From the NCBI RefSeq assembly GCF_048403405.1, contig NZ_CP183129.1: 64,000 bases of DNA. One strand, 5' to 3'. This DNA is from Escherichia coli (GTDB lineage: Bacteria > Pseudomonadota > Gammaproteobacteria > Enterobacterales > Enterobacteriaceae). The position numbers and the translations under genes are program-made. Below are positions 2,889-37,133 of the stretch, piece after piece. The first letter of the stretch is position 1. Each line of letters begins with the position of its first letter. The notes beneath the pieces were generated by a model. It saw only the letters and a program-made list of their open reading frames with translations. It had not been told where the DNA came from and did not search any database.

Positions 2889-3495
2889 TTAAATAATGGC
2901 ATTCCTTTTTAGTATTTCTTGTAACGTTGGTATCGGACATACAGCATCAGCAATCGCACTGATATTCGCGGCATTATCTTGAAACCATTCATGCCCCGGT
3001 CCCCATATGCGCATAACGCAGAGATAAGGGTAGCTGATCGCCAAACGCATAAGGTTCAGCAGTGAGCTACGAATTCAACCAGATATAAAACGATTTTCGA
3101 TATTCAATAACATTCTTCTTTAACTGTTCGGGTGCGTCAGGAGCCCAACGCTCAGGGTAATCGGCGAAAGTGAATGTTGGATAGACATTAGCAACCAGCC
3201 AGACCAATAGCCGTTGAAACTGCTGACGTTCGGCGCGCCCAACCGGTGGCGCAAGGTCCGGGCGACGATCGAGAACCATCAATGCAATCGCCGCTGTCTC
3301 CGTCATAATCTCGTCATTTTCCAGCGCCAGTGTCGGAATCTGACACAACGGGTTCAGGGTTTTCAATAACTCGCGTGAGGTTCCCTCGTGGTCAAAACCA
3401 CTGACATCAACGAACTGATAAGGAATATCAGCCAGTGTTAGCATCAGCTCACTGATTGTAGAGCCCCATCCGGGTACGCCATACACCTTAATCAT
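2889..3495 (-). pseudogene. yncG: glutathione S-transferase-like protein YncG, disrupted (nonsense plus frameshift)
   Basis: ORF 3067..3495 gives GST N-domain MIKVYGVPGWGSTISELMLTLADIPYQF... then TAG at 3067-3069 where K-12 has Gln; downstream LTAEPYAFG..WGPGHEWFQDN..LKRNAII still readable but needs a frame change. Confidence 0.75.
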
Positions 3496-8958: not shown

Positions 8959-9417
8959 ATGGGGAACGAAAAGAGCTTAGCGCACACCCGATGGAACTGT
9001 AAATATCACATAGTTTTTGCGCCAAAATACCGAAGACAGGTGTTCTACAGAGAGAAGCGTAGAGCAATAGGCAGTATTTTGAGAAAGCTGTGTGAGTGGA
9101 AAAGTGTACGGATTCTGGAAGCTGAATGCTGTGCAGATCATATCCATATGCTTGTGGAGATCCCGCCCAAAATGAGCGTATCCGGCTTTATGGGATATCT
9201 GAAAGGGAAAAGCAGTCTGATGCTTTACGAGCAGTTTGGTGATTTGAAATTCAAATACAGGAACAGGGAGTTCTGGTGCAGAGGGTACTACGTCGATACG
9301 GTGGGTAAGAACACGGCGAAGATACAGGATTACATAAAGCACCAGCTTGAAGAGGATAAAATGGGAGAGCAGTTATCGATTCCCTATCCGGGCAGCCCGT
9401 TTACGGGCCGTAAGTAA
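8959..9417 (+). CDS. tnpA: IS200 transposase TnpA (Y1 HUH transposase)
   Basis: Track ORF 8908..9417 trimmed to ATG 8959: MGNEKSLAHTRWNCKYHIVFAPKYRR...; HxH motif (HIHML) and catalytic Tyr region (RGYYVDTVG); 152 aa. Confidence 0.9.
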   Translation: MGNEKSLAHTRWNCKYHIVFAPKYRRQVFYREKRRAIGSILRKLCEWKSVRILEAECCADHIHMLVEIPPKMSVSGFMGYLKGKSSLMLYEQFGDLKFKYRNREFWCRGYYVDTVGKNTAKIQDYIKHQLEEDKMGEQLSIPYPGSPFTGRK

Positions 9418-10388: not shown

Positions 10389-11426
10389 TTAATCATCACC
10401 CGCCACGCGGATCACCACTTTGCCGAAGTTTTTACCCTTCAGCAGGCCGATAAATGTCTGTGGCGCATTCTCTAAACCGTCAGTAATTTCTTCGCGGTAG
10501 TGGATTTTATCCTCTTTCACCCATTGCCCCATCTCCTTCTGAAACTCATGGATGCGGTGACCATAATCCTGAGCGATAATAAATCCTTGCAAGCGAATAC
10601 GTTTTTTCAGCACCGTAGCCATCAGCAGAGGTAAACGATCCGGGCCGGGTGGTAGCTCTGTAGCGTTATAGCTGCTCACTAAGCCGCAGACGGGAATGCG
10701 CGCAGATGTATTAAGTAACGGTAGCACCGCATCAAATACTTTACCGCCCACGTTTTCATAATAGATATCAACGCCTTTTGGGCACGCTTTCGCCAGTTGT
10801 TCGGCAAAATCATCCGCGTGATGGTCAAGACAAACATCGAAGCCCTGCACCTCAGTAGCATGGCGGCATTTTTCCGCGCCACCGGCCACCCCAACCACTC
10901 TACAACCTTTAAGTTTGCCGATTTGACCCACCGTCGCCCCTACTGGTCCTGTCGCCGCAGCTACCACCAGCGTTTCGCCCTCTTTAGGCTGGCCGATATC
11001 CAGTAGGCCCATATAAGCAGTAAAGCCTGGCATCCCCAGCACACCCAGCGACCACGATGGATTTTGCGGATGATCGCCAAGTTTCACCAAATCATCACCA
11101 CTGGATATGTCATAGTCCTGCCATCCACTGTAGCCCAGCACCCAGTCGCCAGGCTGATAATCAGGATGATTCGACTCCACGACACGGCTCACCGTGCCGC
11201 CGACCATCACGCCGCCAATATCAACAGGCGGTGAATAAGATGGCTCATCGCTCATACGTCCACGCATATACGGGTCCAGGGACAAATAAACTGTGCGCAG
11301 TAACACCTGTCCTTCACCCGGTGTGGCGACATCATCTTCTTCAAGACGGAAATTCTCCGGAACCGGTGCGCCATGCGGACGCGAGGCCAGAACCCAACGG
11401 CGGTTACGCTGCTTTTGTTGCCCCAT
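10389..11426 (-). CDS. curA: NADPH-dependent curcumin/dihydrocurcumin reductase (medium-chain dehydrogenase)
   Basis: Track ORF 10389..11519 trimmed to ATG 11426 (MGQQKQRNRRWVLAS..), 345 aa; Rossmann AATGPVGATVGQ motif. Confidence 0.9.
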   Translation of the reverse strand: MGQQKQRNRRWVLASRPHGAPVPENFRLEEDDVATPGEGQVLLRTVYLSLDPYMRGRMSDEPSYSPPVDIGGVMVGGTVSRVVESNHPDYQPGDWVLGYSGWQDYDISSGDDLVKLGDHPQNPSWSLGVLGMPGFTAYMGLLDIGQPKEGETLVVAAATGPVGATVGQIGKLKGCRVVGVAGGAEKCRHATEVQGFDVCLDHHADDFAEQLAKACPKGVDIYYENVGGKVFDAVLPLLNTSARIPVCGLVSSYNATELPPGPDRLPLLMATVLKKRIRLQGFIIAQDYGHRIHEFQKEMGQWVKEDKIHYREEITDGLENAPQTFIGLLKGKNFGKVVIRVAGDD

Positions 11427-11606
11427 AATGCTCTCCTGTGCTTTTGGCATGAATCCATCAATAGTAGCAGGCTCACGGGATTGGTTTTGTTTGCAGCCGT
11501 CACATCCCCTCTGCAACACGCAATAATTTCATCGAGGAATCCGTTGCTTCGGGCTGTTTTCGATAGTATTGATAACATCATCATCATTATTTTATCGAGG
11601 CCAGAC

Positions 11607-12125
11607 ATGTCCATCCGTTTTGCCCGCAAAGCCGACTGTGCTGCCATTGCGGAAATTTATAACCACGCCGTGTTGTATACGGCGGCTATCTGGAATGACC
11701 AAACGGTGGATGCAGATAACCGCATTGCCTGGTTCGAAGCGCGGACTTTAGCAGGTTATCCGGTGCTGGTGAGTGAAGAAGATGGCGTCGTTACAGGATA
11801 TGCCTCGTTTGGCGACTGGCGTAGTTTCGATGGTTTTCGCCATACCGTGGAACATTCGGTTTATGTCCATCCCGATCATCAGGGCAAAGGTCTTGGGCGT
11901 AAATTGTTAAGCCGATTGATTGATGAAGCGCGGGATTGCGGGAAGCATGTCATGGTCGCCGGGATCGAATCGCAAAATCAGGCGTCTTTGCATCTGCACC
12001 AGTCGTTGGGATTTGTCGTCACCGCACAAATGCCGCAGGTAGGCACTAAATTTGGGCGCTGGCTGGATCTGACATTTATGCAGTTGCAACTCGACGAGCG
12101 CACTGAACCGGACGCGATTGGATGA
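11607..12125 (+). CDS. mnaT: GNAT-family L-amino acid N-acyltransferase MnaT (YncA)
   Basis: Track ORF 11373..12125 trimmed to ATG 11607 (MSIRFARKADCAAIAEIYNHAV..), 172 aa; acetyl-CoA binding motif Q/HQGKGLGRKLL. Confidence 0.9.
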   Translation: MSIRFARKADCAAIAEIYNHAVLYTAAIWNDQTVDADNRIAWFEARTLAGYPVLVSEEDGVVTGYASFGDWRSFDGFRHTVEHSVYVHPDHQGKGLGRKLLSRLIDEARDCGKHVMVAGIESQNQASLHLHQSLGFVVTAQMPQVGTKFGRWLDLTFMQLQLDERTEPDAIG

Positions 12126-12571
12126 ATCAGTCGCTTACCCTTGCTTTTTTGATTGCCGCCGGAATTGGTCTGGTAGTCCAGAACACGCTGATGGTGCGCA
12201 TCACCCAGACCTCCTCTACCATTCTCATCGCCATGTTGCTGAACTCTTTGGTAGGAATTGTGCTGTTCGTTTCTATTTTATGGTTTAAACAAGGCATGGC
12301 GGGGTTTGGCGAACTGGTGTCCAGCGTGCGCTGGTGGACACTTATACCTGGCTTGCTGGGATCGTTTTTTGTCTTCGCCAGTATCAGCGGATATCAGAAT
12401 GTGGGAGCGGCGACAACTATTGCGGCACTGGTCGCCAGCCAGCTGATTGGCGGTCTGGTGCTGGATATCTTCCGCAGCCATGGCGTACCACTACGGGCGT
12501 TGATCGGCCCAATTTGTGGCGCAATTTTACTTGTGGTTGGTGCCTGGCTGGTGGCCAGGCGCACATTTTAA
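12122..12571 (+). CDS. ydcZ: inner membrane protein YdcZ (DMT-like)
   Basis: 149 aa hydrophobic ORF; start overlaps mnaT stop by 4 nt (ATGA). Confidence 0.85.
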   Translation: MNQSLTLAFLIAAGIGLVVQNTLMVRITQTSSTILIAMLLNSLVGIVLFVSILWFKQGMAGFGELVSSVRWWTLIPGLLGSFFVFASISGYQNVGAATTIAALVASQLIGGLVLDIFRSHGVPLRALIGPICGAILLVVGAWLVARRTF

Positions 12572-12805
12572 TCAGAGGATGGTGCCACCTTTGGTTAACT
12601 GTTCGTGGCGCGCTTCCATATCTTCTTTATGCTTGCGACCGTGATGGGCGATCGCTGTGCGCAGACGCTGCTGCTGGGTGTAGCGATCTTCCCGACTTAA
12701 CTCCGCGTCATCGCTCAGGGCGATTAATAATTCGTTCATATGGGCAATGACGCTCTCTTCAATCGCGGCATCCACGCGCGCGATGACTTCATCCAGATGC
12801 GACAT
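12572..12805 (-). CDS. ydcY: small protein YdcY
   Basis: 77 aa ORF MSHLDEVIARVDAAIEES..; its stop codon directly abuts the ydcZ stop. Confidence 0.8.
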   Translation of the reverse strand: MSHLDEVIARVDAAIEESVIAHMNELLIALSDDAELSREDRYTQQQRLRTAIAHHGRKHKEDMEARHEQLTKGGTIL

Positions 12806-12890
12806 ACTTTCTCCTTAGCCACTTGTGAAATTTATCGATTCATCCAAATGATATAAGTCTGCGTGGTGCCGTCAAGCCAGTGAGTAAGAT

Positions 12891-13064
12891 TTAAAACAGT
12901 GAAAACAACAGCGCCACCGGGAAACTCATCGGCCATGTTGCCCCCACCAGAAAGGCGCTTAAGAAACGGATGCGTTTCTTATCGTGAGAAAGAAACCAGG
13001 TGATAAGAAATGCGATTGCTGCCATAACCGCATAAAAAACAAGCATGTGTTGATAGAGAGACAT
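12891..13064 (-). CDS. ortT: small membrane toxin OrtT (YdcX)
   Basis: Track ORF 12891..13139 trimmed to MSLYQHMLVFYAVMAAIAFLITWFLSHDKKRIRFLSAFLVGATWPMSFPVALLFSLF, 57 aa, two predicted TM helices. Confidence 0.75.
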   Translation of the reverse strand: MSLYQHMLVFYAVMAAIAFLITWFLSHDKKRIRFLSAFLVGATWPMSFPVALLFSLF

Positions 13065-13258
13065 GTACGGGCGTCCAGCCAGATGAATAAAACGCGCGCA
13101 AATATGCGTCATTTTTTGACGTGCATCAAGTTTTATCACCAGTTTGAGAAAAAATCATCAAACAGCAACTTGCCCTTATCCATCTTCAGAATGAGTATTA
13201 TTGCGGATTTTCTTAACCCGTACTATACACATAGGGGCAATGATAAAAGGTGGCAAAA

Positions 13259-13354
13259 ATGAATGTTTCCAGTAGAACTGTAGTACTGATAAATGTCTTT
13301 GCTGCTGTTGGTTTGTTTACTCTTATCTCTATGAGATTTGGCTGGTTTATTTGA
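13259..13354 (+). CDS. yncL: small membrane protein YncL (31 aa)
   Basis: ATG 13259..TGA 13354: MNVSSRTVVLINVFAAVGLFTLISMRFGWFI; below the ORF-track size cutoff; followed by a strong terminator. Confidence 0.75.
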   Translation: MNVSSRTVVLINVFAAVGLFTLISMRFGWFI

Positions 13355-13385
13355 TGTAGTGATTTTGCACGCAGCACGTACTGTC

Positions 13386-13420
13386 AGAGAAATCAGTGCT
13401 CTGACAGTACGCAAGATCTT
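13386..13420. terminator. bidirectional terminator between yncL and patD
   Basis: Perfect 13-bp stem CGTACTGTCAGAG / CTCTGACAGTACG with 9-nt loop. Confidence 0.7.
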
Positions 13421-13450
13421 CTCATACTCTTACGATCTGCAATATTATCC

Positions 13451-14875
13451 TTAATGTTTAACCATGACGTGGCGGACGACGGTGTAATCCTCCAGCCCAT
13501 AAAGTGACATATCCTTGCCGTAACCAGAAAGTTTCTGCCCACCGTGCGGCATTTCACTTACCAGCATGAAATGGGTATTGACCCAGGTACAACCATATTG
13601 CAGCCGCGCGCTGACGCGATGCGCCCTGCCCACATCTTTCGTCCATACCGAGGATGCAAGTCCGTACTGGCTGTCATTCGCCCAGTTCACCACCTGTTCT
13701 TCGTTGTCGAAGAGCGTAACACTCACTACCGGACCAAATACCTCTTTTTGCACGATGGCATCGTCCTGTAATGCGCCAGCCAGCAACGTCGGTGCATAGT
13801 AATAGCCATTACCCTTGCGCTTTTCACCACCGGTGATCACTTTGATGTGCCCTGTCGCTTTCGCCTCTTCTACCGCCTTGCTGACGCGTTCGAGATGCGC
13901 CAGCGAGCTTAAAGGTCCAAGCTCCGTAGACTCGTCATCCGGTGCACCCGATTTTAACGTTGCCACTGCAGCACCGAGTTTTTCCACCAGCGTATCGTAA
14001 ATACCTTTTTGCGCGTAGATCCGACAAGCCGCAGTACAATCCTGTCCGGCATTGTAATAGCCAAAAGTACGTACACCTTCGACCACCGCTTCAATATCCG
14101 CATCATCAAAAACTATCACTGGCGCTTTGCCTCCAAGTTCCATATGAGTACGCTTTATGGACGGCGCGGTATGGCTGATGATGTGCTCGCCAGTGGCGAT
14201 AGAGCCCGTCAGCGACACCATCCGTACTTTGGGATGTCCGGTCAGCGGATCTCCCACCGTTTTGCCTCTGCCAAACAGTACGTTAATCACGCCTGCCGGG
14301 AAGATATCTTTCGCCAGCTCTGCCAACTTCAACGCGGTCAGCGGGGTAATTTCTGATGGTTTAAGCACTACACAGTTCCCTGCCGCCAGCGCCGGAGCCA
14401 GTTTCCACGCGGCCATCATCAGCGGATAATTCCACGGTGCGATCGAAGCCACGACCCCCAACGGATCGCGACGGATCATCGAAGTATGACCTTCAAGATA
14501 TTCACCTGCCGCCAGACCATTCAGACAGCGCGCCGCACCAGCGAAAAAGCGAAAAACATCGACAATCGCCGGGATTTCATCATTGAACGCACTATGCAGC
14601 GGTTTGCCACAATTACGGGACTCCAGTTCGGCAAAAACCTGACCATTTTCTTCGATAACATCAGCCAGTTTCAGCAGACATTCCGCACGCACTTTCGGCG
14701 TGGTTTGCCCCCATTCGGCAAATGCTGCATCTGCCGCGCGCACAGCAGCATCGACCTGCTCTGCGGATGCCTCGGCAATCTCCAGTAAAACGTCCCCCGT
14801 TGCCGGATTATAGACAGGCTGTTTTTCCCCTTCGCCGCTAACCAGTTCTCCGTTAATCAGTAACTTATGTTGCAT
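13451..14875 (-). CDS. patD: gamma-aminobutyraldehyde dehydrogenase (YdcW/Prr)
   Basis: 474 aa aldehyde dehydrogenase; catalytic Cys region GQDCTAAC and Glu region MELGGKAP; last gene of the ydcSTUV-patD cluster. Confidence 0.93.
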
Positions 14876-28256: not shown

Positions 28257-29237
28257 ATGCGCAAATATCGTCTAAGTGAAGAACAGCGAGCCTTTAGTTA
28301 TCAGGAAGATGGCACTAAAAAAAATGTGTTATTACGGCAGATTATCGCCATTAGCGATTTTAACGATGTGATAGCAGGAACCGCTGGCGGCTGGATCGAT
28401 CGCGAAACGGTGTTAGCACAGGAAGGAAATTGCTGGATTTACGACCAGAATGCTATTGCGTTCGGCGGAACGGTGATTTCCGGTAATACGCGTATCACCG
28501 GCACCAGCGTGCTGTGGGGAGAGGTTTACGCAACGGATAACGTCTGGATCGATAATAGTGAAATCAGCCAGGGTGCATATATAAGTGACAGTGTCACCAT
28601 TCATGACTCATTAGTTTACGGGCAATGTAGAATATTTGGTCACGCCTTAATTGATCAACATTCTATGATCGTCGCCGCACAAGGCTTAACGCCCGACCAT
28701 CAACTCCTGCTACAAATTTATGATCGCGCAAGGGTTAGCGCCTCGCGTATTGTTCACCAGGCACAAATTTATGGCGATGCCGTCGTCCGGTATGCTTTTA
28801 TTGAACATCGCGCCGAAGTTTTTGATTTTGCCAGCGTTGAAGGTAATGAAGAGAACAACGTCTGGCTATGCGATTGCGCTAAAGTCTACGGTCACGCGCA
28901 GGTGAAAGCTGGCATAGAAGAAGATGCCATTCCGACGATTCATTACAGTTCGCAGGTGGCGGAATATGCCATTGTGGAAGGTAATTGTGTGTTAAAACAT
29001 CATGTCTTGATTGGCGGAAATGCCGTGGTACGTGGCGGACCGATTCTGCTCGACGAGCACGTTGTAATACAAGGTGAGAGCCGTATTACAGGTGCGGTGA
29101 TAATTGAAAAACATGTGGAGTTAACCGACCACGCCGTCGTTGAAGCCTTTGATGGCGACACGGTTCATGTCCGTGGTCCAAAAGTCATTAACGGCGAGGA
29201 GCGCATTACGCGAACGCCGCTGGCAGGGTTATTGTGA
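28257..29237 (+). CDS. ydcK: uncharacterised protein YdcK (left-handed beta-helix repeats)
   Basis: 326 aa with repeated hexapeptide-like segments; K-12 synteny. Confidence 0.85.
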
Positions 29238-36611: not shown

Positions 36612-37133
36612 ATGTCAAAGCCAAAATACCCTTTTGAAAAGCGCCTTGAAGTCGTGAATCACTACTTCACAACTGATGATGGTTACAGGATCATCTCGGC
36701 ACGTTTTGGTGTCCCCCGAACCCAGGTCAGGACATGGGTTGCCCTCTATGAAAAACATGGAGAAAAAGGTTTAATTCCCAAACCTAAAGGCGTTAGTGCT
36801 GATCCAGAGTTGCGTATTAAGGTCGTGAAAGCTGTGATCGAGCAGCACATGTCCCTTAATCAGGCTGCTGCTCACTTTATGCTTGCTGGTAGTGGTTCTG
36901 TAGCCAGGTGGCTGAAGGTCTATGAAGAGCGCGGAGAAGCTGGTTTACGCGCGCTCAAGATTGGCACCAAAAGAAACATTGCAATATCAGTTGATCCAGA
37001 AAAAGCGGCATCAGCATTGGAGCTGTCAAAAGACCGACGCATTGAGGATCTTGAAAGGCAAGTTCGATTTCTTGAAACGCGGCTTATGTATCTAAAAAAG
37101 CTGAAAGCCTTAGCTCATCCCACGAAAAAGTAA
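36612..37133 (+). CDS. insJ: IS150 OrfA (InsJ), HTH DNA-binding protein
   Basis: 173 aa MSKPKYPFEKRLEVVNHYFTTDDGYRIISARFGVPRTQVRTWV..; slippery heptamer A_AAA_AAG at 37094-37100 near its 3' end. Confidence 0.9.
   Translation: MSKPKYPFEKRLEVVNHYFTTDDGYRIISARFGVPRTQVRTWVALYEKHGEKGLIPKPKGVSADPELRIKVVKAVIEQHMSLNQAAAHFMLAGSGSVARWLKVYEERGEAGLRALKIGTKRNIAISVDPEKAASALELSKDRRIEDLERQVRFLETRLMYLKKLKALAHPTKK

Follow-up and report, generated by a model that had tools for sequence, protein, structure and literature searches.

Zero spacing between the convergent genes ydcZ and ydcY of Escherichia coli: a compact junction whose 3'-end signals probably lie within coding sequence

The convergent genes ydcZ and ydcY of Escherichia coli meet end to end, which raises the question of where their transcripts finish when no DNA is left between them, and of whether an overlap of these transcripts has any regulatory meaning. 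The stretch of DNA analysed here, referred to as the window, is 64 kb long and belongs to the E. coli chromosome. According to its list of open reading frames (ORFs), ydcZ occupies positions 12122-12571 on the plus strand, encodes 149 amino acids and ends with TAA at 12569-12571; ydcY runs from 12805 to 12572 on the minus strand, encodes 77 amino acids and ends with TGA at 12574-12572, which reads TCA on the plus strand at 12572-12574. Positions 12560-12579 were read directly as cgcacatttTAATCAgagga. The junction at 12569-12574 is TAATCA, that is two abutting stop codons with an intergenic distance of zero, and sequence, ORF list and RefSeq annotation all bore out what a first reading made from the sequence alone (the sequence-only reading) had asserted on this point.

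Both genes belong to recognised families. YdcZ is a membrane protein of the DMT family and matched Pfam DMT_YdcZ (E 4e-24) over profile positions 2-140 out of 140, and Pfam DUF2526 (E 1e-46) spans residues 1-77 of the 77 residues of YdcY. The C-terminus of YdcZ, GAWLVARRxF followed by the stop, kept a constant stop position in 72 enterobacterial genomes, with K in place of the first R in a few species and W in place of F in two; the stop position of YdcY was likewise constant among these 72 genomes. As the Pfam matches are full-length and the C-termini conserved, both stops are genuine, and the different true stop positions on which the sequence-only reading would have foundered were not encountered in any of the genera compared. 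The region is 100% identical to that of strain CFSAN061763 and is matched in 5,415 out of 5,426 complete genomes. RefSeq displays identical abutting CDS ends in CFSAN061763, in a K-12-like strain and in MG1655, where ydcY is located at 1517648-1517881 (plus strand) and ydcZ at 1517882-1518331 (minus strand).

That the abutment is illusory, one of the stops being an annotation artefact rather than a real gene end, can be dismissed with near certainty. No positive support for such an artefact was found, both genes being merely small and poorly characterised. Against it stand the full-length family matches of both proteins, the preservation of C-termini and stop positions in up to 72 genomes from more than 20 genera, the detection of YdcY as a protein by SDS-PAGE (PMC4344625), and the recurrence of the same annotation in MG1655 and in RefSeq rows sampled from the 5,415 matching E. 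coli genomes. This reading was rejected, as the conservation of both ends already refutes it.

A spacing of exactly zero is by itself nothing special. The 11 annotated convergent pairs of the window, together with published excludon statistics, served as yardstick for ordinary spacing. Gaps within these pairs were 112, 108, 0, 96, 91, 34, -9, 38, -23, 41 and 113 nt, and three out of 11 were thus equal to or below zero. The two other pairs concerned were ydcK (plus) and rimL (minus), which overlap by 9 nt at 29229-29237, and hokB (plus) and yncP (minus), which overlap by 23 nt at 36763-36785. Like ydcZ/ydcY, they are convergent CDS pairs with a spacing of zero or less from the same 64 kb; these two, however, have truly overlapping coding sequences and figure among the published excludons, whereas ydcZ and ydcY only abut and are not listed.

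The tight ydcZ/ydcY junction is ancestral and conserved. Eighty genome loci carrying YdcY were retrieved, of which 72 displayed a convergent ydcZ. The spacing was zero in all eight Escherichia loci and ranged from -4 to +9 nt in 45 of the 72 loci, a group that includes Enterobacter, Salmonella, Klebsiella, Leclercia, Kosakonia, Trabulsiella and Atlantibacter. Citrobacter, Kluyvera and Pseudescherichia displayed REP-like palindromic inserts of 26-176 nt at the junction, and a few loci contained still larger insertions, so that the range of tolerated spacers extends from 26 to 1349 nt.

The REP-like palindromes, of the GCCGGATAAG and GCCTGATAAGCG...CATCAGGC types, were located between ydcY and ydcZ in Citrobacter, Pseudescherichia and some Kluyvera. 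They were encountered just past position 3234 of each locus concerned (loci L009-L016, L019, L035, L037, L054 and L060 of the comparative set). Citrobacter amalonaticus (L011) displayed three tandem REP-like copies totalling 176 nt, and Kosakonia cowanii (L057) a canonical terminator (hairpin + T7) in place of the REP-like insert. Elsewhere in the window, an IS200C transposase gene (8959-9417) was found between pqqU and mcbR, and the left end harbors an ISAs1 transposase pseudogene (1341-2477), a frameshifted yncG pseudogene (2889-3495) and a gene for an RHS core protein (1-919).

All transcript data considered here stem from K-12 and were carried over to the window strain (97.7% identical, no indels), to which we infer that they apply; coordinates of transcription start sites (TSSs) were transferred through a gap-free alignment. 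In MG1655, SMRT-Cappable-seq placed the TSS of ydcY at 1517611 on the plus strand (PMC6131387), which corresponds to about position 12842 of the window. A promoter scan of the window predicted TTGACG-16-TATCAT at 12875-12848 on the minus strand, in agreement with the mapped start, promoter and TSS together covering 12842-12875. The same SMRT-Cappable-seq study also reports an ortT-ydcY read-through unit (PMC6131387).

At the other extremity, Term-seq of MG1655 mapped a 3' end at 1517918 (plus strand), classified as 'primary ydcY, antisense ydcZ' and represented by 17,670 and 1,884 reads in two listings (Adams 2021, PMC7815308, Supplementary file 1). Transferred to the window, this end is found at 12535, 37 nt past the ydcY stop. 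The mapping of 3' ends by which the sequence-only reading proposed to check the junction was therefore already available for K-12, and it puts the end of ydcY 37 nt inside ydcZ. The resulting 3' UTR of 37 nt (12535-12571, minus strand) is wholly antisense to the 3' end of the ydcZ coding sequence; its folding energy was -14.3 kcal/mol in K-12 and -15.2 kcal/mol for the window equivalent. From the mapped TSS and 3' end, a ydcY mRNA of about 308 nt was deduced.

Termination on this strand extends further downstream. A bicyclomycin-sensitive Rho termination region antisense to ydcZ was reported at 1518196 (plus strand) of MG1655, with a Rho score of 15.8 and a p value of 2e-25 (PMC7815308, Supplementary file 2). 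Its peak is situated about 315 nt past the ydcY stop, near position 12257 of the window. The C/G ratio downstream amounted to 1.4-1.5 in the first 100 nt and to 1.8-2.4 at +200 to +340. The C-rich, G-poor antisense-ydcZ RNA at 12234-12371 (minus strand), with a C/G ratio of 1.8-2.4 around the Rho peak, is a probable rut site and Rho zone for ydcY read-through.

A further 3' end of the K-12 Term-seq data, labelled 'orphan', is located at 1517357 (plus strand), 32 nt upstream of the start of ortT (12891-13064) and at about 13096 of the window (minus strand). This end may reflect attenuation or processing within the 5' UTR of the toxin gene; an ORF of 82 amino acids starting from GTG at 13139 also spans it.

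Where two genes leave no room between them, any signal for a 3' end has to be sought within the codons of the partner. A terminator-like scan and folding identified a GC-rich inverted repeat at 12540-12562, within the last codons of ydcZ (G-A-W-L-V-A-R-R), which gives a stem-loop on both RNA strands: -19.6 kcal/mol on the plus strand (z -3.2) and -15.2 kcal/mol on the minus strand (z -3.15). Counted from the scan-defined stem, the mapped 3' end of ydcY comes 5 nt later; counted from the final base pair of a separate fold, it comes 3 nt later. The tail past the stem on the ydcY strand, CAACCACAAG, is devoid of a U tract. On the ydcZ strand, a stem of 10 bp with seven G-C pairs is followed by ACAUUUUAAU and passed a consensus terminator scan; its U tract is short, with four consecutive U. 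The tail ACATTTTAAT (12563-12572, plus strand), in which the U run is formed by a Phe codon and the stop, accordingly marks a putative leaky intrinsic terminator of mnaT-ydcZ. It is the consensus scan that suggests terminator activity here, since a ydcZ-strand 3' end is absent from the Term-seq tables of Adams 2021 (PMC7815308), as it is from the SMRT-Cappable-seq files (PMC6131387), both for K-12; this absence may be due to low expression. The leakiness, in turn, is suggested by a double-stranded RNA (dsRNA) duplex recorded downstream. Searched against Rfam (E <= 1), positions 11300-13500 returned no match, and no known structured RNA family is thus indicated at the locus.

The stem differs between E. 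coli strains. Positions 12541-12563 of the window displayed five substitutions in 23 nt relative to K-12 (four synonymous, one Thr to Ser), the background divergence between both strains being 2.3% over 1301 nt. The window allele forms a perfect stem, at the -19.6 kcal/mol given above, and the K-12 allele one with a C·A mismatch (-12.1 kcal/mol). The former is a minority allele: 275 of the 5,426 genomes carry it in identical form, compared with 3,004 for that of K-12. Rare AGA/AGG codons for Arg might have betrayed selection for pairing, but this idea was dropped: one mismatch remains with AGA, the commonest codon, as it does with CGG, and the stem is perfect with AGG only.

The partner transcript starts upstream of mnaT (11607-12125, plus strand; RefSeq, Pfam Acetyltransf_1), which encodes a GNAT N-acetyltransferase and is the first gene of the mnaT-ydcZ operon. 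SMRT-Cappable-seq reports an operon composed of b1448 and b1447 with a TSS at 1518873 (minus strand) of MG1655 (PMC6131387), equivalent to about position 11580 of the window. The mnaT stop overlaps the ydcZ start in ATGA (12122-12125), the usual signature of translational coupling.

Evidence that this transcription reaches ydcY was provided by dsRNA. Table S3 of Huang 2020 (PMC7373196) contains a perfect duplex of 22 nt recovered from both strands (296 and 602 reads) at U00096.2 1515860-1515884; duplexes of this kind were captured by p19 and display 2-nt overhangs (PMC7373196). Its sequence, TTAACTGTTCGTGGCGCGCTTC, was found at 12595-12616 of the window, and the RNase III duplex as a whole corresponds to 12593-12617, inside the 3' end of the ydcY coding sequence and 22-46 nt beyond the ydcZ stop. 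Some transcription of the ydcZ strand must therefore cross the junction. In Table S1b of the same study, p19 dsRNA amounted to 27-71 reads per million (RPM) on ydcY and 36-89 RPM on ydcZ, compared with 3-19 RPM on mnaT and 2-10 RPM on ortT, hence roughly ten-fold above these flanking genes. Table S1c gives 10.1 RPM sense and 11.8 RPM antisense for ydcZ, and 112 RPM sense and 1.3 RPM antisense for ydcY. The antisense density over ydcZ represented 5.5% of ydcY sense density in the wild type and 9-10% in rnc mutants; the antisense density over ydcY represented 26% of ydcZ sense density in the wild type and 22-23% in rnc mutants. The strand column of Table S1c seems inverted for ydcZ, mnaT, curA, mcbR and pqqU (b1447-b1451) with respect to Table S1b and the annotation, so that the sense and antisense labels of ydcZ carry some doubt. 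Most E. coli genes yield dsRNA (Huang 2020, PMC7373196), and the abundance of the ydcZ/ydcY duplex was modest (3.5-7 RPM).

Since the ydcY end is located inside ydcZ and the duplex inside ydcY, the two transcripts overlap and form dsRNA. The statement of the sequence-only reading that the 3' UTRs must overlap was thus right as to the transcripts and needs correction as to the UTRs, which are situated on opposite sides of the junction, each over the coding end of the partner gene.

Taken together, the data are best explained, with good though not full confidence, by an ordinary compact convergent junction, in which Rho and a protective stem-loop embedded in coding sequence set the end of ydcY, the same palindrome is a leaky terminator of mnaT-ydcZ, and dsRNA is a by-product. 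Transcription of ydcY starts from a sigma-70 promoter of its own (TSS at about 12842), and RNA polymerase continues past the ydcY stop into antisense ydcZ, where the untranslated, C-rich RNA would let Rho terminate some 300 nt downstream. Exonucleases would then presumably trim the RNA back to the stem-loop at 12540-12562, leaving a stable ydcY mRNA of about 308 nt with its 37-nt 3' UTR. For transcription of the ydcZ strand, this palindrome and the UUUUAAU behind it (Phe codon and stop) would constitute a leaky intrinsic terminator, and some mnaT-ydcZ transcripts extend at least 45 nt into ydcY. The complementary transcript ends pair, and RNase III cuts the duplex. Any effect on expression is expected to be small.

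Two other explanations of the overlap were weighed, and both appeared unlikely. The zero spacing might be the product of selection for mutual antisense regulation, as in an excludon: ydcY and mnaT-ydcZ would each repress the other when expressed, by interfering with its transcription and by exposing the paired 3' ends to RNase III. Overlap and dsRNA are indeed documented (PMC7815308, PMC7373196), the tight junction was retained in 45 of the 72 genomes, and excludon pairs in general display short intergenic distances and raised synteny (PMC12288877). The sense density of ydcZ, which was only 0.29 of that of its upstream operon partner mnaT, would also fit repression; in one rnc mutant this ratio rose, however, to no more than 0.36 and in another to no more than 0.48, each value coming from a single data set. 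The pair is moreover missing from the 165 convergent excludons that recur in 50% or more of 58 E. coli transcriptomes (PMC12288877), several lineages tolerate a spacer of 26-1349 nt or the loss of the neighbour, and YdcY and YdcZ are not known to be functionally linked. As to the antisense interference which the sequence-only reading held to be allowed by the junction, dsRNA and an RNase III duplex are on record; a regulatory effect is not supported by these data, with rnc mutants changing little and the pair being off the excludon list.

The remaining explanation, to which we would give about the same low credence, dispenses with Rho and with a U tract: polymerases coming from either gene would pause at the stem-loop and be released by head-on and trailing collisions, which would generate overlapping 3' ends. 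The hairpin does sit where the two convergent transcripts coincide, the 3' end of ydcY is found just past it in the absence of a U tract, and such a model has been described for convergent pairs of E. coli numbering in the hundreds (10.1101/2022.10.23.513370). Yet termination downstream on the ydcY strand is strong and bicyclomycin-sensitive, and the class of Ju 2019 is described as Rho-independent. Expression of mnaT-ydcZ is weak (10 RPM versus 112 RPM for ydcY), so that collisions should be rare, and a mapped 3' end exists for the ydcY side only. Given the Rho dependence of the ydcY strand and the weak expression of mnaT-ydcZ, collision is a weaker alternative than a junction set by Rho and a stem-loop.

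The junction thus interpreted, with Rho and a protective stem-loop at the ydcY end, could be compared with known kinds. Dar and Sorek (2018) described Rho-dependent transcripts with precise 3' ends after stable stem-loops without U tracts, followed by RNA with C in excess of G, and some of the protective stem-loops were located inside downstream coding sequences (PMC6061677). In published K-12 data, ydcY likewise displays a stem-loop before its end, no U tract, C>G downstream and read-through upon bicyclomycin treatment. The resemblance extends to the position of the end, a few nt past the stem-loop, to the Rho-sensitive region downstream, and to a stem-loop that lies within the coding sequence of the gene beyond. 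It differs from that class in that its stem-loop is opposite the last codons of a convergent gene, where zero spacing forces it to be, and in that the palindrome may double as terminator of the partner.

The overlapping bidirectional terminators of Ju 2019 and Wang 2022 likewise have one palindrome common to converging units and one mapped 3' end just beyond it. The ydcZ/ydcY hairpin differs from them by being intragenic, by the Rho dependence downstream on the ydcY strand and by an A tract and a U tract that flank one orientation only, the U run being restricted to the ydcZ strand. The ydcY 3' end agrees with the shared-hairpin overlap described in Ju 2019, but the presence of a Rho-dependent region further downstream speaks against counting the junction as a strict member. 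With the convergent excludons (165 overlapping pairs in the E. coli catalogue of ExcludonFinder, PMC12288877), ydcY/ydcZ have in common transcripts overlapping at their 3' ends, a 22-nt duplex from both strands that is processed by RNase III in K-12, and a short (zero) intergenic distance; they differ by their absence from this core list and by an overlap within coding sequence rather than intergenic UTRs. Five other pairs of the window were found on the excludon list, namely ydcK/rimL, hokB/yncP, trg-ydcI, rlhA-yncJ and patD-yncL. The ydcZ/ydcY junction, although uncharacterised, is an ordinary case of kinds already known, combining convergent overlapping transcription with a Rho-dependent 3' end and a protective stem-loop.

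What appeared new here is a link between spacing and the embedded stem-loop, which is more stable at abutting junctions than at those with REP-like or terminator DNA between the genes. The last 36 nt of ydcZ were folded for the 72 genomes, and loci with a spacing of at most 9 nt (n=45) were compared to those with at least 20 nt (n=27). Median folding energies were -16.2 versus -10.4 kcal/mol on the ydcZ strand (one-sided Mann-Whitney test, p 1e-4) and -17.0 versus -6.0 kcal/mol on the ydcY strand (p 5e-6, same test). Relative to 300 synonymous recodings, the mean percentile was 0.21 for the tightly spaced loci and 0.56 for the others. After averaging at genus level (17 versus 9 groups), a procedure that is not a formal phylogenetic correction, the effect persisted in each of the three measures (p about 0.01). 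Exceptions were Atlantibacter, with a weak stem though its genes overlap by 4 nt, and Klebsiella indica and one Citrobacter, with a strong stem though a spacer is present.

These comparisons of sequence suggest that the stem may be kept through synonymous sites where no spacer exists and may be relaxed where extragenic palindromes are present. It is conceivable, though we would hold it only tentatively, that the stem-loop is a selected 3'-end element shared by both genes and held at synonymous sites only while they abut, and that it decays after insertion of a REP-like element or terminator, its 3'-end function passing from coding to intergenic DNA. As a corollary, termination on the ydcZ strand 7-9 nt past the stem would fall within the ydcZ stop (12569-12571) and could, judging from these positions, produce some non-stop mRNAs.

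The junction by itself is of little importance, its arrangement being ordinary and already visible in published data. It illustrates how, in convergent genes devoid of a spacer, the determinants of 3' ends shift into the codons of the neighbour, with overlap and dsRNA as unavoidable companions. Where the genes abut, the coding-embedded stem is stronger than in synonymous recodings, and where a REP-like element or terminator is present it is no better than random. If this proved true across many junctions in phylogenetic testing, it would reveal selection on mRNA 3'-end structure through synonymous sites, and REP insertions would gain a measurable role at convergent junctions.
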